Positions 3 through 64,000 of a stretch of DNA of 64,000 nt are shown one piece after another. The translations under genes and the position numbers were made by a program. The notes beneath the pieces were generated by a model. The model was not told the DNA's origin and ran no database searches. It was given only the letters and a program-made list of their open reading frames with translations. The stretch spans positions 1 to 64,000 of the forward strand of contig MEDY01000236.1 in the NCBI GenBank assembly GCA_001724265.1. The letters run 5' to 3'. This DNA comes from Rhizaria sp. SCN 62-66 (taxonomy: Eukaryota). Positions within the stretch are counted from its first letter, which is position 1. The number at the start of each line of letters is the position of its first letter.

Positions 3-3000
3 GCGAGCGAGGCCGCCGCGGGCGGCTCGGGCTCCGCCACCAGCGCCGCCGCCGCCGCCGCCGAGGCTGCTGCCGAGGCCGCCGCCGCCGCCGCCGAGGC
101 CGCCGCGCTGGCGCCGCCGAACGCGGGCGTGGCGGACCCCGCCAGCAGCACGCTGCCCGTGGTGGCGGCCTCGTCGGCCGTGGCCGTGTTTTTGGCGACG
201 CCGCCGCGCGCGTTGTTCAACCCGTACGCGCGTATCACCACGCTCACTGACCGCGACCCGGAGGCGTTCTTCCCGCCCGCGAACCCGCGCACGGCGATGG
301 CCGCGCTGGCCAAGCAGACCACCGCCGAGGCCGCCGCCGCCGTTGCGGCCGTGGCGCCGTTGCCCGTGGCCACGCCCAAGTCAGCGACGGCGACGACCAC
401 GGCGCTGGCGGCGGCGCGGTCGCTGGGCCGGCTCATCTCGCTCGTGCGCGACGTGCCGCCGTGCGCCGCGGCGGGCTTCCAGGCGATCGAGGACCACATC
501 TACACGTACATCTACGCCGTGGCCGTGACGTTCGCAGGCGATCTTGGCGTCAAGGCGCTGTTCGACATCCCCGTGCGGCCGCCGCGCGTGGGCGCCGCGC
601 TGGCCTCGCAGGACCTGTGGTCCGCCTTCCTCGTCCACGTGTACCCCGTGCTCGCGGGCGTGCTGCAGAGCGTGCGCGCGCGCTTTCCCGCGTCGATGCT
701 TAGCTCCGCGCCGCCCACGCCCAGCGCCAACAGCGGCGGCAGCAGCTCCAACAGCAACATCAGCATCAGCGTCACGGGGGCCGCCGGCGGCAGCGGTGCC
801 GGCGGGAGCGGCCAGGCGCAACAGCCCTCGCCGCGCGGTTCCCCCGCCTTCGGGGCCTCGTCCTCGGCGCGCCCCGGCACCACCACGGCCGCCGACAGCT
901 CGAACCCCTTCTCCTTCGACCTCAACAGTAGCAGCAGCAGCGGACGTGCTTTCCCCTCGACCCCCGCGAGTGCTGGCTCGCAGGCGCGCACCGGCGGCGC
1001 CGCGAGTACCGGCGCGGGCGCCACGGGTTCCGGCCTGTCGAGCAGCTCGAGCGCGGTCGGCGAGACCCCGTCGGGTAAGTCCGCGGCCTCGGCGGCGGCG
1101 TCCCAGGCCGCCAACGCCGTCAAGAACAAGCTCAACTTTTTCAAGAGCAAGCTCACGGGCAAGCCCGACGCGCCCGCGGCCGGCGCCGGCGCTGCTGCGC
1201 CCGGCGGTAGCGGCGGCTTTGGCGGCAAGGACGGCAGCAACCTGCTCTCGCCTACCCCGATGTCTCCTGGCTACGGCAATGCTGACAGTAGCGACCCGGC
1301 GCCGTCCCCGCGCGCGGGCCCCCCCGCGGCGCCCGCGGACGCGCACCCGCACGCGCACGCGCCGCCGGCCGTGGCGCCCTTCGTGGAGCTGGTACTGGTG
1401 AACCTGTCCAGTCCCTCCGCGTTCCACGGCGTGCTGCAGCGCGTGGCCGCCGTGCGCACCGTGCACTTCCTCGCCTTCATCCTGCAGACCGTGCGGCCGC
1501 GGCTCCACGTGCTGCTGCCGCCCGCGCAGCAGGACCGGCTGGCGCTGCTATGCGCCGCCGCCGAGGCCGCGACGCTGGAGCTCACGCAGCTCGTCTTCAC
1601 CGCGCTGCCGCGGCTGCTGCTGGCCACGCACCCGCTGCGCAACCAGGTGCTCGCAGTGCGCTGGGACTCCAAGGCCGCGCCGCAGACACAGAACCACTAC
1701 GTCGACGGGCTCATCGCGGCGTTTTCGATCATCGAGGGCGTGCTTGAAACGCACCCGTCGCTGTTCCCGACGACGTTCAAGCTCGCGCTGCACCGCGGCA
1801 TGCTCGATGAAGCCATCGACATGCTCATCGAGGCCTACAGCGCCATCCCCAAGAGCTCCCACGAGGGCCGCGCGGGCATGTCGCTCGACGCCACTGTCCT
1901 CAAGACCGGCCTCGAGCGCGTGACTAAGATCAAGCCGGTGCCGCGGTGGACCCACGTGGCCGAGTACATCAACGCCTTCTACTTCGACGAGCGCGACTTC
2001 CTGACGTGGATGCGCCGCTCGGCCGACGCCGCCGCCAGCTCGGTCGCGCCCGCGGACCCCTCGGTGCCCCCGCCGAAGCTCTACACACGCGCGCAATACC
2101 TCTCGGTCGCGGAGCTGGGGCCCGGCGCCGTGATGAAGAAGACGCAGAAGGTGCTCTTCGTCAACCACATCCAGGCGCTGCTCGACGACCTGGAGGCCGA
2201 GTCCTCGATGGCCTGCGCCACGGCCTCGTCCACACTCGTCACGGCCGCGCAGGAGCAGCAGCTCAAGCGCCTCGCCATGGGCCTCCCGGTCTCGGTCCGC
2301 GCCGCCGCCGCCGCTGCTGCTGCGGCCGCGGCGGGCGCGGCGGCCGGCGCGGCCACGGCGTCTGAGCTCGCCATCCCCTTCGTGCTCACCGCGGCCGCCG
2401 GCGTCTCCGGCTCCGGCTCCTCCTCGGCCTCCTCTGCTGCCGCCGCCGCCGCCGCCGCCTCTGCAAGCAACAGCCGCCGCGGCTCCGGCTCCGGCGGCGC
2501 TCTTGCCGCAAGCGCTAGCGCCGCGCCCCGCAGCGGGACCGCGACGCCCTCGGCCGCGCGCACTCCCGCGTTTGTGCCACTGACGGGCGCGTCTCCCGCG
2601 CTCGCCGCGCTCGCCGGCAGTGGTAATAATGCGGTGCCGTCCGCGCCGCAGTCGGGCGTGCTGAAGCCGCGCGTCGAGACAGTGCACGACATGGACGCTT
2701 TCTTCGACTCGCACTCGCCCGACCTGGGGCCCAACGTGCCCAAGGCCGCCGGCGCCAACGCCAGCAAGCTCTCTGCCTCCAGTGCGAGCGCCAATGCGAG
2801 TGGTGAGAGTGCGAAGAAGCCCCCCGTGTCGCCCCTGGACGTGGCCATCAGCGCCACTGCCGCCTCCAAGGCCGCCACCGGCGCCAACGGGGCCGAGTGG
2901 GGCCGGCGCAGCGTGGACGAAGGCTTCGACCTGGACGACTTCCTGGGCAGTCCGCTGGCGCAGCAGCAGCTGTCAGCGCAGTCGTCGTCGGTGCAGTCGC

Positions 3001-3173
3001 CGCGATCGCAGCCCGACGCGGCGGCCGCCAAGGGCGGAAACCCCTTCGACGACGACGACGACGACGCCGAGAGTGCAGCCAAGACTGCCGCCGTCGCTGT
3101 CGGCGGCAACCCGTTTGACAGCACGGACCACGTCGACTCGGTTGCCACGGCGCACGAGGACGACATGCCTTAA
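3..3173 (+). CDS. VPS50: Syndetin/VPS50 (EARP complex subunit), 5'-truncated by the window edge, with a long low-complexity C-terminal tail
   Basis: Frame is open from the window start to TAA at 3171-3173. Motifs resemble the Syndetin C-terminal domain: W..K...QNHYVD, LIEAYSAIPKSSHEGRAGMSLD, KPVPRWTHVAEYINAFYFDE. The tail carries NPF motifs. Confidence 0.75.
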   Translation, partial: ASEAAAGGSGSATSAAAAAAEAAAEAAAAAAEAAALAPPNAGVADPASSTLPVVAASSAVAVFLATPPRALFNPYARITTLTDRDPEAFFPPANPRTAMAALAKQTTAEAAAAVAAVAPLPVATPKSATATTTALAAARSLGRLISLVRDVPPCAAAGFQAIEDHIYTYIYAVAVTFAGDLGVKALFDIPVRPPRVGAALASQDLWSAFLVHVYPVLAGVLQSVRARFPASMLSSAPPTPSANSGGSSSNSNISISVTGAAGGSGAGGSGQAQQPSPRGSPAFGASSSARPGTTTAADSSNPFSFDLNSSSSSGRAFPSTPASAGSQARTGGAASTGAGATGSGLSSSSSAVGETPSGKSAASAAASQAANAVKNKLNFFKSKLTGKPDAPAAGAGAAAPGGSGGFGGKDGSNLLSPTPMSPGYGNADSSDPAPSPRAGPPAAPADAHPHAHAPPAVAPFVELVLVNLSSPSAFHGVLQRVAAVRTVHFLAFILQTVRPRLHVLLPPAQQDRLALLCAAAEAATLELTQLVFTALPRLLLATHPLRNQVLAVRWDSKAAPQTQNHYVDGLIAAFSIIEGVLETHPSLFPTTFKLALHRGMLDEAIDMLIEAYSAIPKSSHEGRAGMSLDATVLKTGLERVTKIKPVPRWTHVAEYINAFYFDERDFLTWMRRSADAAASSVAPADPSVPPPKLYTRAQYLSVAELGPGAVMKKTQKVLFVNHIQALLDDLEAESSMACATASSTLVTAAQEQQLKRLAMGLPVSVRAAAAAAAAAAAGAAAGAATASELAIPFVLTAAAGVSGSGSSSASSAAAAAAAASASNSRRGSGSGGALAASASAAPRSGTATPSAARTPAFVPLTGASPALAALAGSGNNAVPSAPQSGVLKPRVETVHDMDAFFDSHSPDLGPNVPKAAGANASKLSASSASANASGESAKKPPVSPLDVAISATAASKAATGANGAEWGRRSVDEGFDLDDFLGSPLAQQQLSAQSSSVQSPRSQPDAAAAKGGNPFDDDDDDAESAAKTAAVAVGGNPFDSTDHVDSVATAHEDDMP

Positions 3174-3546
3174 GCAACCAAGGGACGGACAACCAAGATG
3201 TCTAGGATGACTGACTGGCACGGGCAATGATTCTCTCACTCTCTGGCTTGGCGCAACTGCATGAAGTGAAGTTGAAGTTGAAGTAGACTGCGCTAACATG
3301 AAGATGTCAAGAGCAAAGAGTGCTGACTTTGCTGTCGGATGATTTCTCGTACTGTTTCTTCGGAATATCAACGCAATTATAACACGAATTCATACCAATA
3401 AATCATAATATATTATATTTCTCCTCGACGTTGAAATACATGAATATTGTTTATTGCATCAAATTATGTTGAGAACTGGCCTGGCCAACTTCATCTCAAA
3501 TGATCCCGCATCGCGCGAGACACTTACAGTATGCTCGACCGTGAGC

Positions 3547-5232
3547 TCAGAACTTGGGCATCTGCATGCCGGGGGGCAGCTTCATGCCGGGCGGCAGCTT
3601 GCCCTGGGCCATCTGCGCCATCATGTTCTGCATGCCCTGGGGCCCGCCCATGCGCTGGAGCACGCGCGGGTCGACCATCTTGCTCATGGCCTTCATCATC
3701 TCGGCCTGCTGCGTGGCGCTGGGCTTGCCGCCGGGGCCGCCGCCCATGCCGGGCATGCCGGGCATGCCGGGCATGCCGCCCATGCCGCCCATCATGCCGC
3801 CCATCATGCTCTGCATCATGCTGCCCATGCCGGGCATGCCCATGCCGCCGGGCATGCCGCCAGCGGCGCCGGGCGCGCCACCCATGCCGCCCATGAGCTT
3901 GCTCATGTCCATGCCGCTCTTGGCCATGTTGGACATGCCGCCCGCCATCGCCGAGTAGGGCTTGAACGTCATGAGAACCTCCTCAACATTCTGCAGCGAC
4001 GTGCCCGACCCGCGCGCGACACGCTGGCAGCGCGACGACTGCGTGTTGAAGGGCTTGGTGTCGCCGTCGAGCTCCTTGGGCGTCATCGAGTCCAGGATCG
4101 TCATGAACCGCTTGACGCGCGCCACGGCCTCCTTCTCCTGGCCCTCGCCGAGCTGCATGCCCATCGGCAGCATCGACATGACCTGGTTGAGCGGGCCCAG
4201 CTTGAGGATGTTCTGGAACTGCTCGTGCAGGTCGCGGAAGGTGAACTGCTTGCCCTCAGTCATCTTCTTCATCAGCCCCTGCGACGACTCCATCAGCTTG
4301 TTCTCCTCAAACAGCGTCAGCAGTCCCGTGATGTCGCCCATGCCCAGCAGGCGCGAGACGAAGGACTTGGTGCTGAAGGGCTCGAACTCGGTGATGTGCT
4401 CGCCGGTGCCGATGAAGATGATCGGGCTCTGCGTCGCCGCGACCGCCGAGAGCGCGCCGCCGCCCTTAGCGTGGCCGTCCAGCTTGGTCACGATCACGGA
4501 GCCGACGTCGACGGCGGAGCGGAAGGCCAGCGCCTGGTCCTTGGCCGACTTGCCGATGGAGCCGTCCATGACGAAGACGACGTCGTCGGGGGCACACACC
4601 TTGGCCACCTCCTGCATCTCCTCGAACAGCGCGTCCTCCTGCTTGTGGCGGCCCGACGTGTCGACGACGATGAGGTCGTACTTCTCCGCGCGGAACTTCT
4701 TCACGCCGGCCTCGGCCACCACCACGGGGTCCAGCTCGGTGTAGGAGCCGTAGAACGGGATCTTGGCCTTGGTGGCGTTCTGCTTGAGCTGGTCGAAGGC
4801 GCCCGCGCGGAACGTGTCGGCGCACACGAGCCCGGTCTTCCAGCCGCGCTTCTGGTAGTAGTGCGCGTACTTTGTCACCGTCGTCGTCTTGCCGCAGCCC
4901 TGGAGGCCGACGAACATGACGACGTTGGTCTTGCCCTTCTTGAGCTGGTACGGCGGGCGGCCGCCGGAGTCAAGCAGCGCGTAGAGCTCCTGGATGACCG
5001 TGGAGTGGATCATCTTGCGCAGATTCGCGCCTGCAGCCTCGCGGTCCTTGTTGATCTTGGCCTTGATGTTCTTCTGCAGCTGCACCACGAGCCCCAGCTC
5101 GACGTCGGATGCCAGCAGCGCCTTGGAGATGGCCGAGAGCAGCTGCGTCACGGTGTTGTCGTCGATGTTGACCGCGCGGGTGAGGTTCTGCAGCGCGCCC
5201 GTAAGCTGCGCTCCCAGTTCCGCGAGCACCAT
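3547..5232 (-). CDS. SRP54: Signal recognition particle 54 kDa subunit
   Basis: MVLAELG start; GTPase motifs GLQGCGKTT, DTFRAGAFDQL, DTSGRH, TKLDGHAKGGGALS; M-domain with RVARGSG; Gly/Met-rich tail; TGA stop. Confidence 0.97.
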   Translation of the reverse strand: MVLAELGAQLTGALQNLTRAVNIDDNTVTQLLSAISKALLASDVELGLVVQLQKNIKAKINKDREAAGANLRKMIHSTVIQELYALLDSGGRPPYQLKKGKTNVVMFVGLQGCGKTTTVTKYAHYYQKRGWKTGLVCADTFRAGAFDQLKQNATKAKIPFYGSYTELDPVVVAEAGVKKFRAEKYDLIVVDTSGRHKQEDALFEEMQEVAKVCAPDDVVFVMDGSIGKSAKDQALAFRSAVDVGSVIVTKLDGHAKGGGALSAVAATQSPIIFIGTGEHITEFEPFSTKSFVSRLLGMGDITGLLTLFEENKLMESSQGLMKKMTEGKQFTFRDLHEQFQNILKLGPLNQVMSMLPMGMQLGEGQEKEAVARVKRFMTILDSMTPKELDGDTKPFNTQSSRCQRVARGSGTSLQNVEEVLMTFKPYSAMAGGMSNMAKSGMDMSKLMGGMGGAPGAAGGMPGGMGMPGMGSMMQSMMGGMMGGMGGMPGMPGMPGMGGGPGGKPSATQQAEMMKAMSKMVDPRVLQRMGGPQGMQNMMAQMAQGKLPPGMKLPPGMQMPKF

Positions 5233-5921
5233 CCTGTTGTGGGGTATCAAGAGAGCAAAGGGGTTGTCGTGAGTGCGAGTTCAATTATGGTTGGGGAGTG
5301 TGACGAGGGAAGTTTCGCCCCTCTCTTCAAGCAGGTCACAGTCATAGTATATCATCCCTATATGAAAAACAATTCGCGTATACAAAACCTATCCTTGTCT
5401 AGTTCGTCATACTGCTATAACTACCATATTGACGGCCATCCGAACGCAAGGATATATGTCTTTTGACTCTTCGATGAGTGGTGGTGGTGGTCAGCAGTGG
5501 CGGTCGAGAGGCAGGTCGGTCGGAAAAAATAAATGAATTTGAGGTCCCCTTAGAACTTTCTGGCCAGCCCTTAGCCGAGTCGACCGGGGATGCGCACCTC
5601 ATTTGTATGCGCTCAATTCAGCCTCTTGTAACATTGTGGTTTATCCTTGGGTTGCTTTACTAACCAAAGTATCTATTTTCTTCTTTCAGCGCTCCTGCCG
5701 CGGGGTTCTTTGTCTATTACGAGGGCTCGTTGAGTCCCCGCGGGGTGGTCTCAGCTCTGGGTTGGGCCGCCATCATTCCCACCTTCCCGCAGAGCACTGC
5801 ATGACGTCTGTTTGATGTTTCATATCTTCCCCAGGGTTATCCTAGGTCTAGTCTCACCTCCCTCTCTTGCTCCTCTCTTCCCCGAACTTTCTTTGCTTCG
5901 TCTTCTCGCTTCAAACAGGGA

Positions 5922-6563
5922 ATGCCCATCTCCAAGGTCCGTAAGTTTGTCGCCGACGGTGTCTTCTACGCCGAGCTCAACGAGTTCCTCGTTCGCTCCC
6001 TCGGCAAGGACGGCTACACCGGTGTCGAGGTCCGCCGTACTCCTCTCAAGACCGAGATCGTTATCCGTGCTACCCGCACCCAGAACGTCCTCGGTGAGAA
6101 CGGCCGCCGCATCCGCGAGCTTACCGCCCTCATCCAGTCCCGCTTCAACCTTCCTGAGGGGACTGTCGAGCTCTACGCTGAGCCCATCCGCAACCGCGCT
6201 CTTTCCGCCATTGCCCAGGCTGAGGCCATCCACCTCAAGCTTACCCAGGGCCTTGTCGTCCGTCGTGCTTGCCATGGTGTCATGAAGTACGTGATGGAGA
6301 GCGGCGCCCTCGGCCTCGAGATTGTCATCTCCGGCAAGCTCCGTCAGGCCCGTGCCAAGGCCATGAAGTTCCGTGATGGTTACATGATCAAGGCCGGTGA
6401 CAACTGCCAGTACTACGTCGACAAGGCTATCCGCCACCTCAAGCTCAAGTCCGGTACCCTCGGTATCTACGTCAAGATCATGAAGCCCCACGACCCCACT
6501 GGCCGCAACGGTGTCGCTGTCAAGCGCGCTGACGTTGTCACCATCCTTGAGCCCAAGGCGTAA
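5922..6563 (+). CDS. RPS3: 40S ribosomal protein S3 (uS3)
   Basis: [51 protein letters not shown]. Strong C-ending codon bias; TAA stop. Confidence 0.98.
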
Positions 6564-30200: not shown

Positions 30201-30956
30201 ATGTCCGATAAGGTAAGTCAAGACGCCGCTAAGGCCTCTTTAAACAACGCCCCCCAAGCTTCTTCCTCTTCATTGTCATACTCTCTGCCCATGCACCCTT
30301 CCCGCAAACGCACGGCTCCCACCGCAGCAGCTTCGATCGACAACGGCGCTGCTGCCACTGACTCAGCCTCAGCCTCGAGCTTCAGCTCTGACTCGAATCT
30401 CGACTCTTGCATCGACGCTGCAGCGCCCCCCTCTGCCCCCGCCCTAGCCTCCGCCCCCGCCCCCGCCCCTGCCACGGCAACGGCGACGGCGACGGCGACG
30501 GCGACCGACGCAGACGCCCACGATCTCTTGGAGCAGTGGCGCGCCGCGGGCTTCCCCGCGCGCAGCGTGGTGCACTTCGCGAAGCTCTCGCACAAGGCCG
30601 TCGCGCACGCCGCGGTGCTGGAGCAGCACGCCCGCCTGCGCGCGGAGAAGGCTGCGGCCAAGGAGGTCACGCGCCTGGCGCACGAGGCGCGCATGCGCAG
30701 CTAGGAGCAGGCTGCGGCCAAGGAGGCCACGCGCGTGGCGCGCGAGGCGCGCATGCGCAGCCAGGAGCAGGCTGCGGCCAAGGAGGCCACGCGCGTGGCG
30801 CACGAGGCGCGCATGCGCAGCCAGGAGCAGGCCAAGGCGGAGCGCGTCGCCGCGCGCGCGCGCGAGCACGAATTTGTGCTGAGTCAGCATGCCGCGTTCC
30901 GCACGTTGAGGGCCTCGCGCAGGGCGCTGCACGAGGGCTACAACCCGGCGTGGTGA
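30201..30956 (+). CDS. Hypothetical protein with 20-aa tandem repeats and one in-frame TAG (30702-30704)
   Basis: ORFs 30162-30704 and 30735-30956 share a frame. The TAG aligns with CAG in the neighbouring repeat copies. Confidence 0.6.
30650..30835 (+). repeat. About 3 copies of a 60-bp coding tandem repeat (AAAKEATRVAHEARMRSQEQ)
   Basis: Lines 30661, 30721 and 30781 are near-identical at 60-nt spacing. Confidence 0.9.
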
Positions 30957-32169
30957 GCCGTCGAGGGGCCCGTGCCGCTCGTAACCGTCGAGGGGCCCCT
31001 AGCCGTCGGGGGACCGGCGGCGGCTGCGGCGGCTGCGGCGGCGGCGCTTGACCAGTCGGACGCGGCAGCGACGGCTGCGTCCTCTCTCTCTGTTTCTCTC
31101 TCTCTTGTTGACAGTGAGAGCGCCAGTACCAGCGCGAGTGTGTCTGCTGAGGAGCCGGGATATGGACCGGGACAGGACCAGGACCGATAAGAAGAGGACG
31201 GGTGCGTTGCGATGCGAGGCTTGATACCGAGAGCAAGGCAGTGTAAAGCGAGCGCAACGACGTGTCTTGAAATGTATGTGTTGCTGTAATTGTAAAGCTG
31301 TCGCTGTCGTTAGCACGACAATACTGGTCCTCGTGACCGATTATCGTGTTGCCGACACGATGTGCGTGTATCTTGTAATGATATCTTCTGCGCTCGCTGT
31401 ATACTGTATCCTTGCCATTCTTACGCGCTGTACTTTGCCACACGCGCTGCACTCACTCTCTATCGGTGCACATCAGTGTCATAGCACGGATGGACCGAGA
31501 GACGCTTGTCCCGCGCGCGTGTGATCGGAGTACGCTGCGTTATCGCTTAGCGGCGGCTTGATCGGACATGCTAACCCCACATTTCACACACACAGAACCC
31601 ACCCTGCACCACGTGCGGACCGGAGGAATGCGCGTGTCTTCCGCGGCGGTCGCAGTGCAGCCGTGGCCCACCGGGGCCTGCTGCACTGCGCTCGCCGCCG
31701 AGACGCGGCGCGGACCGACGCGACGTCCAGTTATTGCGACATAGACCGTGATAGTCTTGTCGAATCATTGATAAAACTAAGGTTGATATACAAAATATAT
31801 TATTTCCGCAATATCTCAATGATCTTATTGGATAGATCTTCACCTCCAAGATATAGACTCGGAGTTGTGCCCTTACGATAGACTCGTGGCTGGATCTGCG
31901 TGTCGTGATCGGGACAAGTTGCCTTGCATTCGGATTTCTATATGTATACAGGGCAACGATATAATAGTCATTTGTCGCTTGAAGAAGTGATGAAGAAATT
32001 CATCATATATTTTCACAAATTAGGAATTTGACCAAGCTTGATCTTGCTAGTTTATTTCACTCTTTTGACATGCACATCTTTTCTTCAGGTAAGCTGCGCA
32101 ACTCGCTTCGCACAAATCACCCAACCTCACTGAGTCTTTCACCGATTGGAATAATTATCTTTTTATAGC

Positions 32170-33946
32170 ATGGGAAAGTCTTCTAAAAAGAAGAATGCTG
32201 ATGCACAGGCAAAAACCCTGCCAAATACCCCAGATAAGCCACCAAGCAAGTCCCCCAAACCCATCAAGTCTCCCACAACTCCGCACCACCACGCGCACTT
32301 CAAGTTCGATGCCTCATCCCAAACCAACGCGCCAGGCGCGGTTATCGTCATCAACAAGCCTGTACCAAGTCATCTTTCCGCTGCAGCTGCGCGCAGGAAG
32401 CGCCCCGCGCCCCCCTCGCCGCACCCTCTCGACGACACCCCTGGCCAGCGCACTGCGCCCGCCCCCGCCCCCGCCCCCACGCCCGCCCAGGGCTCTGCGA
32501 CTGCTCCTGCATCTGCGCCCGCCTCCGCCTCTGTGTCTGCGCACGCTTATGCTTCTCCGCCCGCGTACTTGCACACGTCGTCGCGTCCCGGGGGCGGCTT
32601 CGTTGCCTCACCACCCGCGTCAGCGGCGCACGGCAACACGGTCGCCGCGCCTCTAACAGCGCCTTTGACCCCGCACGCGACGCACGGTGCGGCGCCTGCA
32701 GCTGGTGTTGCCAGGTCGCCGGGTCCCGCAGTGGCGCTGCCGCTGCCGCTACGTGCGGCGCAGTCATTCTTCCCGCCCGCTGCGCCGGCGCTGCCTGCGA
32801 CCACGCTACCTGCGGCGGCGGGCGTGCACGGCAGCAGTGTTGGGTACTATGGCAGTAGCAGCGGCAACACTATTGGTAACAATGCTAGCTTGGGTTTTTC
32901 TGGAGCTATTGGCCCCATTAGCTATGCTAGCTCAATGTCTGCTTACAGTTACAACAACGCTTACGGTCACACTCCGCTGACCGCGTCTTCCTCATCGTCA
33001 TCGCTGTCGTCGCCATCAGTCCCGCTCGTCTCCGCATCGGCCCTCTCATCGTCGCTGTCATCGCCGCTGATCCTGAGCGCGATTAACCCCGCGACCAGCC
33101 CGGTTCCCGGCGTTAATTGCGGTCTGACTCATGGCGGTATGACTCTGAGCGAGCAGTCGTCGCGCGCGTACCACGCGTACCGCGCCCAGCGTCTCGAGAC
33201 GGAGCGCGCGTACCTGGCCGGCATGCTCGCTGTGCTGGCCCCGCTGCGCGCGCGGCTTGCGGCGCTGCGCGCGGCGCATGACCGGCAGCGGCACGCGCAC
33301 TTTGCGCTTGCCCGCCGCGCGCTCGAGCTGGAGCACCGCCGCGCCGCCTGCGCCGCGGGTTCGCGCGAGTGCGCAGAGGCCGAGGCGGCGCTGCAGCTTG
33401 CGCAGGCCGAGGCTGCGGCGCTGCTACGCGCGCTGGCCGCCGGCGACGACGTGCTGGCTGCGGCCGAGGGTGCGGTGGACGAGGCCGGCGCAGGGTCCCT
33501 CGCCGAGGCCGAGGCCGCGGTACGCAGCAGCGAGGCCGCGCTAGCGGCGGCGGCGGCGGCCGCGAACGGACTGCTGCAGCATCAATTGCCGAAACAGCAA
33601 CAGCAGCAACTGCCGCAGCTGCATCAGCAGCAGCTGCAGCAGCAACAGCAACAGGCGATGCCACTCACACAGCCGCAACTGCAACAACAGCAGCAGCCTA
33701 CGCAGCAGCACCAGCAACAACAAATGCAGTCACAATGGGTATCAAACCCAAACCACTTTCTGTCGTTGCCTCCACAGCTGCCACGACAGAGCCAGGCCCC
33801 GGGCAGTCAGGCCTAGGGCCAGCAGCAGGTCTCGGATGCTGAGATGCGCACCATAGTCGAGAAGCACCGGGTGAAGCAGGCAGAGATCCAGCAATACTAT
33901 CGCCAGTGGGACGAAAATGAAGCCGAGGCGCGCAAGAAGCTTCAGC

Positions 33947-34034
<88 letters not shown>

Positions 34035-36230
34035 CAACAGCAACAACAGCAGCCACAGAGTAAAGCTGCTGCAGTGAAGCCGGAGAATAATCCCATCAAG
34101 AGCAATCCTAACAATACGACTAATAACGGCTCAAAGAGCAACAGCAGTACCAGTAGCAACGCCGCTGTTGCAGCTTCGACGAAACCGACTAATAGCAATA
34201 CTCCTGCTTCCACAGTTGCCGCAGCAGCCATTGCCGCGGCCGGAGCTCCTGTCGCGAACGTGGCTTCATCACAGACACAGAATCCTCTCACTAAGGCTGA
34301 GCACAAGCTCACCAAACAGGAAGCGCACATCCAACGTGTCCTCGAGGCTGCAGCGCAAAAGAAAGAGCAAAACCGGCTGCGCACTCAAGAGCTTCAGAAA
34401 GCAGCAGCATTAAGGAAGGAGCTGCAGCAGCAGCAACTGAAGGAGGAACAAGAGCAAAAAAAGCTACAGGAGCATAAGAAAAAACAGCAACAGCAGCAGT
34501 CAAAAGCTGCGCAGCAGCAACAACAAGGGCCCGCCAAGAAGAGTGCTGCCGTGGTCGCAACGCAGGAGGTGAACAAGTTTGAGCAGCAGAATAAGAGTAA
34601 CCTCAGCGTTGGGATGAGGGCTGAGCAAGAGAAGCTCGCGGACAAGGAGAAGCGGAAGCCTGTCGAGCAAGAGCAAGTTGCGTGGATGCCGACGGGCAAC
34701 GAGAAGGCGGGGCAACAACAACAGCAGCACGAAAAAGAGCAGCGCGAGGCAGAGCTGCAGAAAACAAAGAGTAAGCAGGCTGAGCGTGAGAAGGCCGCTG
34801 TCGCCGCTACAAAGGCTGCGGAAGCTGCTGCCGCTGCCAAAATTTCGGCAGCTGTTAAGGCGAGGCTTGACGCGTAGATGTCATCGAAGCCCGAGATCTA
34901 GGAGATGATGGCCTTGGCAGATGCCAAGAAGGAGTTTGCGAAGAAGCAGGAGCACGAGCGCGGGCTCAGGCATCTCGAATACGATGCAAAAGAGAGGCAC
35001 GAGGCCGAGGCGAAGCAGGCTGAGCAGGTATTAAAGGTCAAGGAGAAGAAGATCCTTGAACAAGAACACAAACTCGCACTTGAAGCAAAAACCAAGCGTG
35101 GTCAAGAACAAAACTCAGTGCTGGCGCAGAAAAGTGACGTCATGAAGAAGTTGGAAGAAGAACAACTTGAACGTGAACAAAAGGTGAACAAAGTTACTGA
35201 GATGTTGACCAAGAAGCGTCAAGCTCTGGCTGCTGAGCGTGAACGCGAGGAGCATAAGCGTCTGCGCAAGGAAGAGCGTAAGCGCGAGAAAGCTGAGCGT
35301 GCTGCTGCACAGGAAAAGGAGACGACAGAGCAGGAGAGGCGACTTGAAGCTGAGAAAAAGAAGAAGCATGAAGAGAAGGAAAAAGAGCAGCGTAAGCGCG
35401 AAAAGGAGCAGCGCAAAGAGCATGAGCGCAAGACGCAGCACGAGCAGCAGGCATGCGACGAGGCAGCGAGGGCGCAGAAGAAGAAGAAGGAACAGGCGGA
35501 GACTGCAGAGGCGACGGCAGCTAAAATCAGGGAGAAGGCGAAGGCCGATGAGGAGGCCAAGAAAAAGGCCGACGCTAAGCTTGAGGCTAAGGCTACTGCT
35601 GCCGCCGCCGCCGCCGCTGCTGCTGCTGCTGCCGCAAAGGCGAAAGCTGACGCTACTGCGGCAAGGCCAGCGACAGAACTGCCGACACGCTCTCTGCGGT
35701 CAAACTCCACTGTTACCAACTCGACTTCAAGCTCTGGTACCAGCTACACCTCGAGCTCGAACTCCAGCTCCAGCTCCTGCGCGAGCGTCACCGCATCGGG
35801 CTCCCACCGCGGCGCCGCGGCCGGCACGAGCGCGGCTGCGCTCGACGCCGCGGCCCGCCAAGCCGCGCTCGTCAGCACAAAGACTTCGGTGAGCGCGTCT
35901 GTTGCGCAGAATAACAGTGCCCCCGACACTTCTAGGACTGTTGTCAAGAGGAACACTTACAACTTCACAACTGACGATAAAGACAGCAAGAAGAAGATTG
36001 TCTGGTCTGCGGCAGCTGTTGCTGAGGCTGCGGCCGCGGCCGCTGCTGCAGCCTCTGGTCCGACTATTTTGCCGAGCGGCGCTGCGTCTGCGTCCCCCGT
36101 GTCAGCGCGAGCGACTGTGAGCGGTGCAGTGGCGACCGAGCCTCCCCGTGAGTCGCGCCGGCCGGGGACTGTGACGTGCCCCGACTATGACTCTGATCTG
36201 GACTCTGGGCCTGAGAATGGTCCGCGCTGA
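32170..36230 (+). CDS. Large Q/E/K-rich coiled-coil protein with three in-frame TAGs and one frameshift in a CAA microsatellite
   Basis: ORFs 32170-33816, 33844-, 34074-34877 and 34905-36230 join via TAG 33814, a one-base-short CAA unit near 34033, TAG 34875 and TAG 34899; final TGA. Confidence 0.65.
33946..34032 (+). repeat. (CAA)29 microsatellite encoding polyglutamine
   Basis: Perfect CAA run read directly from the sequence. Confidence 0.95.
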
Positions 36231-54913: not shown

Positions 54914-56554
54914 TTAATACTCCTCGTCCGCGTCCGCGTCCACGTCCGCGCGGGCAGAGAGAGCGCGCGCGCGAGCCACAGTCCTGGGCGCGGCGGCTTC
55001 CGTGGTCACGGCGCCGACAGCGGAGAGCGCGGCGGCGCGGAGCACTGCGAGCACCTCGGCAGTGGGCTGGTAGTCGATGTCGGTGGTGAGCACCGCGGTG
55101 CCGGCGGCGAGCGTGAGCTGCGTGCCGACCAGCCGCAGCCCGCGCACCGTAGGCAGCGGGAGCCCCGACGCGAAGACCTGGTTGATAAAGGGCACGACGA
55201 CGCCGCTGACGACGGTAGCGATCTCCTTGTCGAGCTTGTCGACCGAGAACTGCCCGATCGCCGTCTCGGCCAGCGAGAGCGATGACGTGAACTTGGCGAT
55301 GTTGAGCTTCAGAAGCGGGTCCGCCGGGTCCGTGGCGTCGAACCACATGTTGGCGGCGCCCGCGAGCGCGACGTGGACCACGAAGGCCGCCTTCCAGCTG
55401 GTGCCGACCTTAGCCTCGGTCTTGAACGACATGAGTCCGCCCATGTCGAGCCCCTTGCTGGAGATTGAGACGTTGAACTCGCGCGCAAAGCTCAGCACGA
55501 TGCGCAGGTCCGCGTCGGGGAACGTCGCTTGCAGCTGCGGCACCATGGTCCAGGCCTTGGAGTTGAAGGCCACAGGCCACAGCGGCGGCGGGTTGGTCCC
55601 GTCGAAGGTGAAGGCAAATGCGCCCGACTTGTGGAGCACGTGCAGCAGCGTCTGCGGGACAAAGCTCGACAGCGAGAGCGCAAGCATGGGCCCCGCGGCC
55701 GGCAGCGACTGCGGCACGCGCGGGACGGCGCCGTCGGACTTGCCCGTCGTGGCCGGGTACATCTCGCCGTTGAAGAGCATGCTCACGGCCGTCTTGGACA
55801 GGATCGGGGCCTCGGTTAGTGACAGATCCAGCACAGCAAGCGGCCCCACGGGCACGCGCAGTAGCATCGACTGCACGATCGTGTCGGCGAAGGCGTTGAC
55901 GGTGCTCACCATGGTCGTCTTGATGGCGTTCTCGAGCGTGGTCTTGATCTTGCCCTTAAAGAGGCGCACGATGAGGTTGTAGAGCCAGGAGAACATCGAC
56001 TCGGCGGTCTTGACGTCGATCGAGTCAATGTCGATAGCGACGTCCTTGACGCGGAACTGCGGCGCGAGCCCCTTGGCGGTCTGCACGGCGCCGACCTCGA
56101 GCGTGGCCGCGAAGTGCGAGCAGGCCAGTGACGCCGTCGCGGAGCCGGAGCCGGAGGGCAGGTGAGGGAAAATGGCCAGGCGGTAGCTCCAGTCCATCTC
56201 AGCCGAAAAGGCCGCGTTGTCGACACCGACGGTGAGCCCCGAGGTGAGGGACACGGACACGCCCGAGGTCTTGGCCGAGGTGACATGGATGTTTGTCACG
56301 CTGTACTCGAACCCGGTTTCGGTGCCCGAGATGCCGTCGAAGGTAAGCTTCGTCAGCGCCTCAAGCGCGGAGGGCACCACGCGGCGCGCGAACTTGTCGA
56401 GGCCGCCGACGTTGAGCGACGCGATCACACCCGGGGCGACGGGGGTGCCCATGTCGGCGGCGTCGCTGCTGCCGGCGTTGATACTGCTGCCGGTGGCGCC
56501 GGCTAAGGCACTCAGGGCAAGCAACAGCAAGCAGAGAGTCTTCTTGATGAGCAT
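54914..56554 (-). CDS. Secreted BPI/LBP/CETP-family lipid-binding protein
   Basis: Signal peptide MLIKKTLCLLLLALSALAG; SLNVGGLDKF; SWLYNLIVRLFKGKIKTTLE; VPFINQVFASGLPLP; TAA stop. Confidence 0.85.
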   Translation of the reverse strand: MLIKKTLCLLLLALSALAGATGSSINAGSSDAADMGTPVAPGVIASLNVGGLDKFARRVVPSALEALTKLTFDGISGTETGFEYSVTNIHVTSAKTSGVSVSLTSGLTVGVDNAAFSAEMDWSYRLAIFPHLPSGSGSATASLACSHFAATLEVGAVQTAKGLAPQFRVKDVAIDIDSIDVKTAESMFSWLYNLIVRLFKGKIKTTLENAIKTTMVSTVNAFADTIVQSMLLRVPVGPLAVLDLSLTEAPILSKTAVSMLFNGEMYPATTGKSDGAVPRVPQSLPAAGPMLALSLSSFVPQTLLHVLHKSGAFAFTFDGTNPPPLWPVAFNSKAWTMVPQLQATFPDADLRIVLSFAREFNVSISSKGLDMGGLMSFKTEAKVGTSWKAAFVVHVALAGAANMWFDATDPADPLLKLNIAKFTSSLSLAETAIGQFSVDKLDKEIATVVSGVVVPFINQVFASGLPLPTVRGLRLVGTQLTLAAGTAVLTTDIDYQPTAEVLAVLRAAALSAVGAVTTEAAAPRTVARARALSARADVDADADEEY

Positions 56555-57478
56555 GCCTAGATGGTGTAGGAGTGGAGAGGGCAAGGGTGAACGGGACGAT
56601 TGAGTCGGACGCGGTTTCGGGAGTGGAAGCAATGGAGTGGGGGGGCGTATAAGAGCGACGAGAAGGGGGAGCAACATGTGGAGGATATGTCGCTCTGAGA
56701 AAATGCAAAAACAAAAACACGTTTAAAACATATTTGAAATGAAGAATTAAAGAAAATATCACTATTAAAACGACAGGATATGCGCGAAATAGCGTTTTTG
56801 ACTCTGGACCTCATGCTGCTGCTAGCCTTGCCTACGTAGTCCCACGAGAGTCCTTCCTCAACTCACCACAGAGTCGATTTGGTCCAACGCACTTAAGTGA
56901 AGATATCTCAGGATGACAAACACTAAAAGAGCTCTACCTAATTTCATATGGCTTTAACAGCGGGATCACACAGTATCAACATGATTTTTATTCTAGCCAA
57001 AGTGTGCATATCCATGGAATCTTACGTTTCAGGACAAATTCAATACGCACGCTTTGTATCTACTGATTCAGGCAACAAACAGCTGTTTATGTTAGGTATT
57101 AAATGATAATACATGTTCAATACAGTTTCAATCTTGAATATAAAGAGTATGTGTCAGGAGAGTGCATATACCGATTCTGAGCATTTTTCGGTCCTGCGGC
57201 ACGAGGAGGCGGCTTGTTTTCTCCCGGCCAGTTCGAACCAGCGGGCTCTCTTTGCAAGCGTAATACGAGCTCACACAGCCTTCGTACAGAGTTTATGCTT
57301 GCCACTTTGATAACTTCTTGCGACGTTCTATATTATATTCCAACTGTAATCGCAGCCATTGTTGTTTTCATGCGTGAGAGCTTTGCTCCGTCATCGCCCT
57401 CGAAGGACTTTCGTTTCCAGCTCTGACTGACTTCTCGGACCCTTATTTCTCTCGCCCACCTTTACCTTTTGCTTCAGA

Positions 57479-58533: not shown

Positions 58534-59221
58534 GTAAGTCAGCCCAGCCCAGCCCAGCTCAGCTAAGCTAAACGAAGCCCTGCTTCTTTTACTCGACTTC
58601 TGACCATGTCTCTGTTTGTTCGTCCGTTTGTTTGGACGGGCTGACGGAGCACCATGGTGTTGACTCAGTTAAGTAACAAACAACCCCGTGATCCGTGATC
58701 CGGCAAAGTTAGCACTTGTGCTTCTCTGCTGATGCGGTGTGACGTCTCGCGATGAAAGGCGGCGTATTGTTTTGTGATCTAGAGAGCTGTGCATTGTTGA
58801 CTCGCGCTCTCTCTCGAACTCGCTTCGACTGTTTTATTGATTTTATTTTCCGTCCCCCCTATCATCGCTTGGTCTCCTCGCTCGCAGTGTGTGTACCAAG
58901 ACACGCCTGCCCGTTTGAGTCTCGAGACTCAAGCCATTCATAATACAAACCCTAAGTTATAAAATAGTATCCTATAAGAACACAGATAACATAGATCTAA
59001 GTACTTTGTTTTATTAATCCGCATATAATAAGCTTAAGCAGAAGCATATGGCCATCTGACCCTCAATAAGACTGGAAGCACGAACAGACTCCAGTCAATT
59101 GCACTCTCTTACACACTAGCAACTTCAAGGATCACTACATACAGCTGACTCGCAGCCTGTCTCACCGGACGTCACCGTACGGGGCTCAGACGGGCGCTCA
59201 GACTGGGCGCAGACGGGGTGC

Positions 59222-60584
59222 TCAGGCGGGCGTGGTGGCAACGTCGGCGGCACGGATGGACTTGACGAAGATCTTGTGCGGCTGCTGGCGGCCGGGCCCG
59301 TTGGCGCCCAGCGACCAGTCGTAAGAGCACGCGTAGGCGTACATGCTCCCGTCGGGGCTGAAGACGCCCGTCGAGATCGGGCCCTGCTTCGGCTGCGGAG
59401 AGGATAAGGGGAAACAACGACAAAGAGACAAAGAAAGGAGTGAGCGTGAGCGTAAGTGTGTGTGATGCAGAGTCGAGGTGAGGATAACCGATGTTTTGGC
59501 ATTGCAGAGTGAGATAAATATGATCGCCATATCTTAAACAGATGCATTGCATTGAACAGAGACAAACCAAGCCAGCAGAGTAAATGCGGAAACTCTTGCC
59601 AAGCGTGTGCGGGGAGGGGGCGACGTACGTTGTGCGTGTTGATCGAGACTTTGCCGATGTGGTTCCACATCGTGATCTCCTCGTTGCCCGTCGTAGCGAG
59701 CGCGCCCGTCGAGGGGTGGAACGACAGCGACGTGACGGGAAAGATGTTGCTGATGTTGCCCGTCGCAGACCGGTGGCAGCGGAAGGGGAACGACTTGTCG
59801 GCCAGCGCGCCGAAGTACTTGATGTGCGCGCGGCCCTCAATGGAGCCCGTGGCGTAGCCCATGTCGTTCGGCATCGCGCCCACCACGCGGGTCTGCACAG
59901 AACAACAGTAGAGAGAGATGAGAGAGATAAGAGAGGTGAGTTAGATCGGAGCGAAAGCAAAGCAGAAGCATATGGACCAAGATATAGCGGTAACAAGTCG
60001 ATAATAAAAACGTGGTGACAAACCTGGAACTCGTGGGGCGTCTCGGCCGTCTCGAAGAACGCGGTCGGGTTGCGCACGTCGACGCAGCCGACGAGGCGGT
60101 TCTCCATACCGATGACGAGCAGGTTGCCCGCGGCGTCCATCGAGTAAACCTTGCCGGGCAGCGCGAGCTCGGCCACGGGGGCCTTGGTCTGCGAGCGCGG
60201 GTCCCAATACCGCACCGCCTTGTCCCAGCCGCCAGTGACGACGGCGCCGAGAGAGGGCAGCAGTCGGCAGTCCTTGATGGCGGCCGCGTGCTGGCCCACA
60301 ACTATCGACTGGTTGGCGTTCGGGTCGAAGGCGCGCAGCACGTTGTCGCAGCCGGCGGAGAAGATGAGTCCGTTGGCCGAGTCGCACTGGACCGAGAGGA
60401 CGGGCGCCTCGTGTTCGTACGCAGTCGCGGGGGCGATGCCCTGCGCAGTCAGCGTCCAGACGGAGACCTTCTTGCTCCAGGAGCCGGAGGCGAGGACGGG
60501 CGTGTTGGCGTACGTGCCGAACGACAGGGAGGAGACGGTGTCCTGCGGAACCTGGGGCACGGGGCGGTCAGCGACTGTAGCCAT
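59222..60584 (-). CDS. RAE1: mRNA export factor Rae1/Gle2 (WD40); 3 exons
   Basis: PQDTVSSLSF, TGGWDKAVRYWDPR, FQ|TRVV, GSIEGR, FRCHR, YACSYDWSLG (the SYDW motif favours Rae1 over Bub3); TGA stop. Confidence 0.88.
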
Positions 60585-61012: not shown

Positions 61013-64000
61013 TTAGGTGAACGCCGAGTCGTTCAACCAGTCTGACGAAGTGCCCGTCCTAATCGCACCAGGACCAGCACCAGCGCCCGCACCCGCACCG
61101 CCGGCGAGCCCACCCAACCCCAGGGCTTCAAGGCTGCGCATAAACGGGTCGTCCGAGGCCCGTCCAGCAATGCCGAGGCCGCTCGCCTGCGGCCGCCCGT
61201 ATCCTCCTGGCTGCTGCAGCGGCTGCTGCTGAGGGTATTGCTGTTGGTAGCCGGCAGCCGCACCCGTGTTGCTGTTGAAGCCTCTGCCGGTGCCGGCGCC
61301 GACGCCACTACCACTAAAGCTCAGCCCAAGCGCGGCGGCCAGCTCGTCGGCCACGTCTCCGCCCGCCGCGATGCCCGTCCGAGTACTGGGGTTAGGGTAA
61401 GCGCTTGAGCTGCCGGCGCGGTACGGCGACGCTGAGGGCACGGGCGCCGTCGCGATCGCACTCGGCGCAGCGTATCCCGTCACTGGCGTGGGGTTGAAGT
61501 TGTTGTAGTTCCCCGCGCCCGCGGTCGATAGCTGCGAGTCGTTGAGCGCGTCCAGGCTGCCGAACCCGCCGTAGCCCGCCGCGGCTGCAGCAGCGGGCGC
61601 GGGCGCGGGCACAGCGCTGGCGGCCGGCGGCAGGGTCGCAGCGGGCGCCGTGGACGCGAAGGCCGAGTCCGAGTCCAGAAACGCCGGCTGGCGCTGCGGC
61701 CTCTCGGCAGCCACTGCGGCGGCCTCGTCCTCGGCCCACCGCGCGGGCCCGTAGCTGCCGCTCGTGGCCGCGAAGCCGAACGCGGGGTGGCCCGCCGCGG
61801 CGCCGGGGCCGAAGCTCGCGGCAAACGTGCTGTGCTGCTGCTGCTGCTGCTGCTACTGCGGTTGGCCGTAGGCAGTGGCGGCGGCGGGGCGCGCGGGGGA
61901 GGCGGCGTGGGGTGTGCCGAGAGCGCGGGCGAGCTCGGCGCCGATGTCATCGTCGTCATCGTTCTTGTTGTTGCGCTTGCCGAAGCCGTGGCCGTGACTA
62001 GCGTGGACGTTGTTGAAGTCGCCGCTGTGGCTCGGCGTCGGCGGCTGGTACTGGAACTGCGTTTGTGACTGCTGCTGAGAGAGCTGGCCAGAGAGATGAG
62101 CGTTGGCCTCGGCCGCAGCGTAGGCAGCGGCACGCCGCTCCATGGCGCCCGCCAGCCCGCCCGCCTTGGCGCTTGCACCGGCGGCGGGAGCGGGCTGGGC
62201 GGCGGCAGGGGTGAACTGGCCGTAACCAATCTGGTGCTGCTGCTGCTGCGGCTGCTGCTGTTGAGGCCTCTGCTGCTGTTGCTGCTTGTTGGCAACGGGA
62301 GCGGCGTCAAAGCTGTTAAATATGTCAGACGCGTCATTGTCCTCATCGCCAGCAACAAGAGGTGCAAGCATATGCTGCTGCTGCTGCAGCTGCGGTTGCT
62401 TGTGCGTGTTGGCAGCTGCAGGGCGCTCGTCCCAGTCGTCGAAGGGATCTGCCGTCTCCTCAGTCAAGTGACCGTGGGCAGGGTGATCGTGAGGCAGGCC
62501 GAACTGGTTGTTGTTGCTGTTGTTGCGCGCGTAGCCCGAGACCGTGGCTGTCGACGGCACGGGGCCCGGCGGCAGCAGTGGGGCGCCCACCAGGCCCAGA
62601 CTGTCGTCATCACCATCAACGCCCTCGAACTCAGCCTTACCCTCGCGCTCGCGCTCGCGTCCGGGGTAGTTGTAATGATCGCTGTCGAAGTCATCGTCGT
62701 CGCGACCGTGCGCACCGGTCACAGCCGGAGCCGCAGCAGCAGCAGTGGCAATGTTGGCGTTGGCGTTGGCCTTGGGGTCGTCGACGAGCACGGGCCCGTC
62801 CTGCACCTCAGCGTCGTTGTCGCCGTAGTCGACGTCGCTCTCGCCCGCGCCGCGCGCGCCCCCCTCCTCCTCGTCGTCGTCAAGCCCGAAGGCGAAGTCG
62901 CCCGCGGCCGCGCCCGGCGGCGGCGGCACGTGCTACGCGACGTCGACGCCGGCGCCCGTCGCGCCCAGCGCAGCCGCCGGGGCCGGCGTCGGGGCCAGGG
63001 CCGTGGGCGGGAGCTCGGACGCAGGCGCAGACACAGGTTCGGGCTGTGCAGCAACAGGCGCAGGCCCAGGCTCAGGCACGGCAGTCGGCGCGGGCTCTTG
63101 CTGCTTCTCAGCACCGGCTGTGGCCGCATCCGCGTTGGGATACGCCGCGGGCACCCTTTCCTTGTTCACGTCACACAGATACTCCTGCTCCTCATCGTAG
63201 TCGTCGTCGTTCTCGACGCCTTCGGCCACGGTCGCGGAGACCTGCGCGCTAGGCGGCAGCGGCGGCGGCGGCAGCATCGCGCCCGCCGCGCGGTCGAAGA
63301 TGGACATCGTGCGCGTCTTTTGCTTTGGCACAAACGCCATCGCAGGCGCCGCAGCCGCACCAGCGCCAGCGCTGTAGCCATGGCCGTGTCCGTGTCCGTG
63401 AGCGTGGCCGGCGACAGTGACGGCCGGAGCGGGCGCGGGGGGAACGGAGAGGCCGCCGCCCGAGGCCGGAAGCGTGAGCGCAGACTTGGGCGGCAGCGGC
63501 GGCGGCACGCGTGGCGGCGACACTGCACTGGCAGGCTCGCCAGCACCAGCGCCAGCAGCTGTCACAGCAGCGGGCAGGCCCGTCGCCGCCGGGGAGCTGA
63601 CCGACAGGCGCGCGTGCAGCGGCGGCGGCGGCAGCGCGGCGTGCCGCGTGGGCAGCGGCACGTCCGCGCTGGGGCTTGGGGGCGCGGCTCCCAGTGAGCG
63701 GGCGCATTGCCCCAACCCCAGCTCCAGCCCCTGTCCCTGTCCCTGTGCGAGCAGCGACGGCACGCCCTCGTCGTCTTCGCCCTCGGCGCCCGCGGGGCCG
63801 AACACGAGCTGGCCCGGCGCGGGCTGGGCGGGCGCGGCCGGCGCGGCGCCGCGGGCGGGCTTGACGGGCGCGGCGCGGGAGGAGGCCGCCGACGGGTGCA
63901 GCGGGGAAGAGCGCGAAAAGGCACGCTTGCCGGCGCGGTTGGGCGAGGTGCGGGCGCGCGCGTAGTAAATGCGACCGGTGCCGGCGATGAAGAACTTGCC
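61013..64000 (-). CDS. Low-complexity Pro/Gln/Ala-rich protein, 5'-truncated by the window edge, with two in-frame TAGs (62933-62935, 61853-61855)
   Basis: ORFs 62933-63805, 61853-62929 and 61013-61714 are in one frame, which is open from 64000 except at the two TAGs; final TAA. Confidence 0.7.

Follow-up and report, generated by a model that had tools for sequence, protein, structure and literature searches.

The window analysed here is a stretch of 64,000 nucleotides (contig MEDY01000236.1, positions 1 to 64,000) from the assembly GCA_001724265.1 of Rhizaria sp. SCN 62-66. Its last 3 kb carry, on the minus strand, the 3' part of a gene for a low-complexity protein interrupted by two in-frame TAG triplets (Table 1). 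We argue below that TAG is a sense codon of this nuclear genome, and that glutamate is the residue it fairly probably encodes. On the minus strand, the letters around the TAG at 61853-61855 read GGC CAA CCG CAG TAG CAG CAG ... CAC, and 279 open codons separate this triplet from the terminal TAA. The TAG at 62933-62935 stands in the context GTC GCG TAG CAC GTG, followed by 359 open codons and preceded by 355, which reach the window edge. These counts agree with an earlier sequence-only reading of the window, which had put the open stretches, the first beginning inside a CAG run, at about 280 and 360 codons; inspection of the letters also bore out its statement that neither TAG has a CCWGG context. 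A run of 995 codons free of TAA and TGA has a chance of 5e-5 at the composition of the gene, the G+C content at third codon positions (GC3) is 0.79-0.81 in all three segments delimited by the TAGs, and a codon model found the flanks of each TAG to be coding in one frame (scores of 13.0/12.7 and 7.2/7.2). A Pfam search with the protein returned zero matches.

Base-calling errors, named by the sequence-only reading as a possible undoing of its claim, do not account for the two triplets, since contigs from run X3, an independent study, cover 61777-62102 and 62462-64000 with 0 differences and span each TAG. A contig from run X4 covers 61714-62038 with 1 difference, whose exact place is unlisted. 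A further X3 contig, matched under a likeness setting of 85%, has indels at 62931-62937 and is taken as a foreign GC-rich piece. Contigs of poly(A) RNA (run X5) cover 62752-62930 and 62960-63363; this coverage is no proof of mRNA, because X5 reaches intergenic DNA too.

Stop-codon use was assessed with a codon model trained on the genome. For every stop triplet in 752 kb, or 2% of the genome, the 40 flanking codons on either side were scored. Among the DNA scanned were the window itself and the locus of eRF1, which had both been picked for their TAGs, and 3-kb loci picked by tRNA patterns. After coding sequence, the model placed TAA at a gene end 60 times and inside a gene once, the figures for TGA being 61 and 2 and those for TAG 14 and 16. 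Of the 14 'terminal' TAGs, most either score so low as to be noise or are flanked on either side by long open frames. With a strict cut, the gene ends comprised 44 TAA, 30 TGA and a single TAG, the latter in an antisense-like frame. As for a code of the Condylostoma type, in which a triplet is sense inside genes and a stop near their 3' ends, TAG stands at no more than 1 of 75 strict gene ends, a test with few sites. In-frame TAGs occur about once per 10,000 codons (19 sites in about 186,000 codons) and, if counted as glutamate, would make up about 0.3% of Glu codons.

In domain searches, among 142 kinase-domain matches, 9 contained TAG only and 5 contained TAA or TGA; five of the TAG-only cases are exonic and the other four are splice-site TAGs. 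Most of 14 domain regions flagged for TAG likewise proved to hold 3' splice-site TAGs. Searches with the ABC, SNF2, DEAD, kinesin, myosin and three dynein families yielded no confirmed exonic TAG, every flagged triplet inspected in them being a splice-site or intron TAG, and 3 Helicase_C and 5 Mito_carr matches with TAG were left out of the exonic counts. A GC3 pattern for in-frame TAGs gave 400 matches, and 4 of the 28 loci looked at were sense-frame, the others being antisense or off-frame; with a second GC3 pattern, one of four TAG rows was genuine. Interruptions by TAG only speak against scattered nonsense mutations, because those would also yield TAA and TGA. All together, these data give good support to TAG as a sense codon genome-wide, with TAA and TGA as stops.

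In-frame TAGs were found in essential genes, namely those for eRF1, a mitochondrial-type MetRS (between the HIGH and KMSKS halves), Ubp14 (one TAG), a Dicer-like helicase (three) and six kinases, and a Vps13-like gene has two. Public gene calls split Ubp14 in two, P0242 stopping exactly at the TAG and P0243 beginning after it; extrapolated to the genome, the number of sites affected would lie between several hundred and about 900. Three PF03463 matches were obtained, two of which are Pelota exons, leaving one eRF1. The eRF1 gene (L031/L094, G000:C63) has four exons, ends at a TAA and carries its TAG in the N domain, upstream of GGQ, where the alignment shows no gap. Identical letters at this TAG recur in a metagenome contig that was deposited separately and may derive from the same sample series; among the 32 eRF1 loci found for relatives, one is identical and the remainder are not close.

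The eRF1 protein itself differs from its homologues at a position of interest. Its GTS motif has become GSS (Thr32 to Ser), whereas Thr is found in 117 of 117 homologues, including P0005, which is 84% identical. According to PMC5304391, Thr32 is linked to reading the G of UAG. E55, L69, S70, NIKS and YxCxxxF are kept. A T58K change is common only to the host and P0005, so it is either older than the code change or a mark of the lineage. An N(K/Q)F motif change was also observed.

A tRNA gene with a CUA anticodon lies on a gene-rich nuclear contig (Table 1). In a wide pattern search one of 22 matches folds as a tRNA, and a D-arm pattern has a single match in the genome. A CUA anticodon pairs with UAG and not with UAA, and such a tRNA has been predicted for UAG-only codes (PMC5304391). 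None of the tRNAs inspected from an Rfam search has a CUA anticodon; none of the tRNAs inspected has UUA (63 of 506 candidates scored, with no pattern search aimed at UUA); and tRNA-Glu(UUC), the likely parent of tRNA(CUA), was not among the host tRNAs inspected. The tRNA(CUA) is identical at 47 of 73 positions to the host's own tRNA-Glu(CUC), in a gap-poor alignment with a common U1-A72 acceptor start and T-stem. Its identity to the host tRNA-Gln, which has G1-C72 with U73, is 40 of 73, with gaps, and a DNA search with tRNA-Gln(CUG) as query did not recover it. In a BLAST against a phage collection, 23 of the 40 matches listed are annotated as tRNA-Glu and none as tRNA-Gln. To judge from these comparisons, the body of tRNA(CUA) appears to be of the Glu type, and a decoding role is predicted.

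Other CUA tRNAs and other identities for this one were also considered. A tRNA-Pyl has a 6-bp anticodon stem and short D and variable loops. The tRNA(CUA) was rejected as a tRNA-Pyl, being an ordinary cloverleaf with a 5-6-bp anticodon stem, a 9-base D loop and intact GG and TTC motifs; the Pyl label given by ARAGORN follows the anticodon. CUA tRNAs identical to it at 57 of 73 positions occur in Clostridia bins (L318 and L325, Table 1) and probably come from amber-recoding phages; a horizontal origin is not supported, as the search pattern forced about 21 of these 57 matches and a eukaryote-type tRNA-Glu(UUC) has the acceptor stem in common with tRNA(CUA). Large phage contigs (L304, L306-L308, L311-L313 and L327) carry CUA tRNAs too, often as tandem pairs, one with a long variable arm. 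The host has one tRNA(CUA) gene and five copies of tRNA-Gln(CUG), from which its tRNA-Gln(UUG) at L019 differs (Table 1).

The sequence-only reading had described the TAG inside the CAG run as behaving like a synonymous Gln codon. Its sense function holds genome-wide; its identity as Gln does not fare as well, since conserved columns and the tRNA body favour Glu. Where at least three of the four neighbours are Gln, 383 of 1,429 centre codons are not Gln (among them 16 GAG and 3 TAG). A TAG within poly-Q is thus no proof of Gln, because such runs here often hold other residues, and the poly-Q setting shows the origin of the TAG from CAG, not its meaning. Seven TAG sites could be aligned with homologues (L259, with three aligned residues, was left out, and the Vps13-like and Dicer sites are unaligned at the TAG). 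Three of these fall in Glu-majority columns, one in an Asp/Glu column and none in a Gln-majority column. Specifically, the eRF1 column holds 107 E, 9 D, 1 V and no Q among 117 sequences; the Ubp14 column 74 E and 4 Q among 144, with E in all three closest relatives; and that of kinase L261 E in 45 of 112 (40%), D in 27% and Q in 2%. At the hinge site of kinase L283, E is present in 64 of 73 kinases bearing the motif; a homologue search with this kinase gave zero matches.

These columns were evaluated in two ways. The host's own residues fall in Glu-majority columns in 76 of 225 cases for Glu and in 6 of 134 for Gln, as against three of seven for TAG, and a column-class test calibrated on them gave log-likelihoods (lnL) of -12.6 for E, -17.4 for D and -18.3 for Q over the seven sites. 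A fixed-tree likelihood test modelled on PMC5304391, with six sites (L283 excluded), also placed E best, with a lead over Q of 4.6 under LG and 3.9 under C20, and Leu, Tyr and Trp far behind. Across both tests, the lead of Glu over Gln is 3.9-5.8 lnL on six to seven sites.

Several observations weigh against glutamate. Over 19 sites, a model of the flanking context places Gln at the top (Q-E +6.5), and TAG is found in 0 of 190 Glu-context centres and in 3 of 1,429 Gln-context centres. The nulls of this model are 17.7 +/- 7.9 for Gln and -13.3 +/- 4.8 for Glu; omitting the two sites of the window gene lowers the score to +2.8; and the score expected under assumed rates (standard deviation about 7) is -1.5 to 6.1 for Glu with CAG origin and 9 to 13 for Gln. 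Since +6.5 falls between the nulls and mutational origin overlaps, context cannot separate Glu from Gln; the rates of mutational origin are assumed rather than estimated, and the Glu reading leans on them to meet the context model. In the likelihood test with trees re-estimated on the appended columns, E led Q by only 2.9 and A, E and S were tied; the appended columns distorted this version, which was replaced by fixed trees. The nearest relative has Val in the eRF1 TAG column, which is therefore relaxed in the host lineage. The hinge residue of L283 is Ser in KSR and Gln in TNNI3K, the best PDB matches, and Gln in CaMK1; the reference set of 120 kinases is NEK-biased; and three kinase sites are uninformative (L255, K18/A16/N14/Q13/E6 of 119; L256, E11/Q9 of 112; and L260). 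On the side of the tRNA, identity reaches 48 of 73 with the host tRNA-Thr and 53 of 73, with the whole acceptor stem alike, with two phage tRNA-Gln(UUG); the phage BLAST matches have weak E-values (4e-3 to 0.6) and are redundant; and amber tRNAs that combine U35, G73 and a weak 1-72 pair often receive Gln in E. coli (PMC9976931). The Thr32-to-Ser change may have a small effect on stop recognition, as Ser retains the hydroxyl, and among the RNA contigs listed none runs across either TAG of the window gene.

Part of this evidence would be accommodated if UAG were a third Gln codon, beside UAA and UGA as stops, with GlnRS charging the Glu-looking tRNA(CUA) through U35, G73 and U1-A72. The rank of Gln in the context model, the acceptor stem held in common with the two phage tRNA-Gln and the hinge Gln of TNNI3K and CaMK1 all fit this explanation, as do the tandem repeat with TAG in place of CAG and a TAG/CAG ratio in Gln contexts (3/754) near the genome-wide one. 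We nevertheless consider it unlikely: the lack of any Gln-majority column among the seven sites, the rarity of the host's own Gln in Glu-majority columns, the 3.9-4.6 lnL deficit of Q, the fall of the context score to +2.8 where the assumed rates predict 9-13 for Gln, and the G1-C72 and U73 of the host tRNA-Gln all argue against it. Slightly less likely still is a transitional mixed output, in which tRNA(CUA) would give Glu, the near-cognate tRNA-Gln(CUG) would give Gln in Gln-rich settings and eRF1 would stop at some UAGs. Glu-like conserved sites beside Gln-like disordered ones would follow from it, and the 1:5 ratio of tRNA genes and the great rarity of the codon are consistent with it, as is the finding that a QXQ setting promotes Gln readthrough in yeast (PMC13192750); by analogy, some Gln insertion at the TAG at 61853-61855 is plausible. 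Mutation of CAG alone, however, explains the Gln-like settings, and the purging of TAG from gene ends fits a finished loss of stop function. A cognate tRNA, moreover, is expected to outcompete a near-cognate one. Taken together, Gln at some or all of the TAG sites, mixed reading included, is possible, with a clear minority share of our belief.

A standard code is very improbable in our view. The TAGs would then be nonsense mutations, sequencing errors or intron ends, or be rescued by splicing or by A-to-I editing to Trp, and it is true that many flagged domain TAGs were 3' splice-site TAGs and that no listed RNA contig crosses a TAG. Against this stand the same letters in independent contigs, coding frames interrupted by TAG and hardly by TAA or TGA, the absence of an alignment gap at the eRF1 TAG, Trp as the worst-fitting residue and the presence of the CUA tRNA gene; in addition, the sole eRF1 found and a MetRS would be dead.

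In conclusion, we favour, as fairly probable, a nuclear code in which UAG specifies glutamate and UAA and UGA stay stops. Such a code could have arisen as follows. UAG would first have dropped out of use as a stop; a copy of tRNA-Glu would have acquired a CUA anticodon, pairing with UAG only; and the altered eRF1 would compete less at UAG. New TAGs would then come from GAG, silently, and from CAG by the commoner C-to-T change, replacing Gln with Glu, the latter being tolerated in disordered Gln-rich stretches such as that of the window gene, where the TAG at 61853-61855 would place a Glu within the run of Gln. With a single tRNA(CUA) copy, decoding would be poor and the codon would stay rare and mostly confined to weakly constrained sequence. 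The wider picture, to which we give moderate confidence, is that of a UAG = Glu code caught early in a rhizarian host, with one Glu-type tRNA(CUA) and a TAG in the eRF1 gene that may feed back on eRF1. That residual UAG termination and the TAG in eRF1's own gene form a feedback loop is speculation.

The genome in question is a eukaryotic assembly of 34.9 Mb with AT-rich introns, and the window has a GC content of 61%. The organism, an uncultured single-celled eukaryote, occurs in bioreactor and wastewater metagenomes, four runs from three studies, one of them a possible source, containing at least half of its sequence words. With eleven dynein heavy-chain loci, the genome looks like that of a flagellate. 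Among named organisms the best matches are to rhizarians, Plasmodiophora brassicae in the case of a NEK kinase and Lapot gusevi in that of Ubp14. On these sequence matches, the host is probably a rhizarian, GC-rich flagellate. A polyubiquitin gene, a lineage marker, was absent from the DNA stretches examined. An AT-rich, highly divergent small-subunit (SSU) rRNA gene with four group I intron matches lies on a separate contig and may belong to a different organism; its first insertion seemingly encodes a His-Cys box homing endonuclease. One dynein DHC_N2 match contains a single TGA; the gap that comes after this match keeps the frame and is probably due to an in-frame intron.

Elsewhere in the window, four further in-frame TAGs are spread over three other open reading frames (ORFs). 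Two long ORFs overlap over a CAA repeat with a one-base slip; they probably belong to one gene, the length of the repeat having been misassembled. The window also contains a gene for a lipid-binding protein and a WD40 gene similar to Rae1/Bub3.

Table 1. Coordinates of the genes, in-frame TAGs and other features described in the text.
Feature	Sequence	Positions	Strand	Details
Low-complexity Ala/Pro/Gly/Gln-rich protein gene, 3' part	window	61013..64000	-	995 codons, open at window edge
In-frame TAG of this gene	window	61853..61855	-	within CAG run
Second in-frame TAG of this gene	window	62933..62935	-	
TAA, true stop of this gene	window	61013..61015	-	AT-rich intergenic DNA beyond
In-frame TAG	window	30702..30704	+	unit 1 of three-unit tandem repeat; CAG at same place in units 2 and 3
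In-frame TAG	window	33814..33816	+	in Gln-rich ORF 32155-34077
In-frame TAG	window	34875..34877	+	in Glu/Lys/Gln-rich coiled-coil-like ORF 33921-36227
Second in-frame TAG of ORF 33921-36227	window	34899..34901	+	
Overlap of two long ORFs	window	33921-34077		CAA repeat
LBP/BPI/CETP-family lipid-binding protein gene	window	54914-56722	-	
WD40 gene	window	59172-60584	-	intron-containing; WD40 match
tRNA gene, CUA anticodon	G000:C84	76008-76080	-	gene-rich nuclear contig, T-run after
tRNA-Gln(UUG)	L019	1500-1574		
CUA tRNA of Clostridia bin	L318			
CUA tRNA of Clostridia bin	L325	94-169		
SSU rRNA gene	L034 (G000:C706)	1501-5945		four group I intron matches
Dynein DHC_N2 match with one TGA	G000:C164	48099-49313		

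If UAG is Glu, the code is new; if it is Gln, a known code has arisen once more, independently. According to PMC11687900, UAA and UAG nearly always shift together. In the exceptions listed there, UAA either stays a stop while UAG is read as Leu, Gln or Ser, or means Lys where UAG means Glu. Within the reach of our literature search, which did not extend to subscription journals or supplements, UAG = Glu combined with a UAA stop was not reported, and exLh was the sole rhizarian code; if true, the code proposed here would be a second, independent code change in Rhizaria. With the codon, a tRNA gene and an eRF1 change in one genome, the codon-capture and ambiguous-intermediate models become testable. 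The case also illustrates that a rare codon in a poly-Q context can mislead code inference, and it has a practical side, as public gene calls already break such genes at TAG.

Among the codes with UAG alone reassigned, that of Iotanema spirale (UAG = Gln; UAA and UGA stops) is similar in the uncoupling of UAG from UAA and in a changed eRF1 Thr32, T32G there and T32S here; it differs in lineage and in the residue, Glu being probable here, and its tRNA(CUA), for which a gene was found here, was only predicted (PMC5304391). The standard-code relatives of Iotanema have GTS intact (PMC9161772). The rhizarian exLh code (UAG = Leu; UAA and UGA stops) has in common with ours the sense UAG, gene ends with UAA and UGA only and probably the supergroup; in contrast, Leu is among the worst-fitting residues here, L69 is kept here and is L69A in exLh, and exLh has 384 UAGs in 71 genes as against about 1 per 10,000 codons here (PMC5304391). 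Among phyllopharyngean ciliates, where UAG is Leu or Gln and UAA a stop, UAG alone is likewise reassigned, with a tRNA-Sup(CUA) in two genomes, the residues and the lineage being other than here (PMC11687900). Hartmannula and Trochilia have UAG = Gln codes with UAA and UGA as stops.

Among the codes with Glu, Oligohymenophorea sp. PL0344 (UAG = Glu, UAA = Lys) reads UAG through a Glu-derived tRNA(CUA), as is probable here, but there UAA is sense and 10 tRNA(CUA) genes are 69-93% identical to tRNA-Glu, whereas here UAA is a main stop and the one copy found is 64% identical (PMC10553269). Peritrich ciliates and Blastocrithidia (UAR = Glu) have a tRNA-Glu(CUA) reading UAG, which is likewise probable here, and their reassigned codons are rarer in highly expressed genes; both UAA and UAG are reassigned there, whereas TAA here is terminal 60 times for one internal case (PMC11687900, PMC12153298). 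Finally, the change in Blastocrithidia is tied to AT pressure, while that described here arose in a GC-rich genome, contrary to the AT-pressure account given for cases of the Blastocrithidia type.

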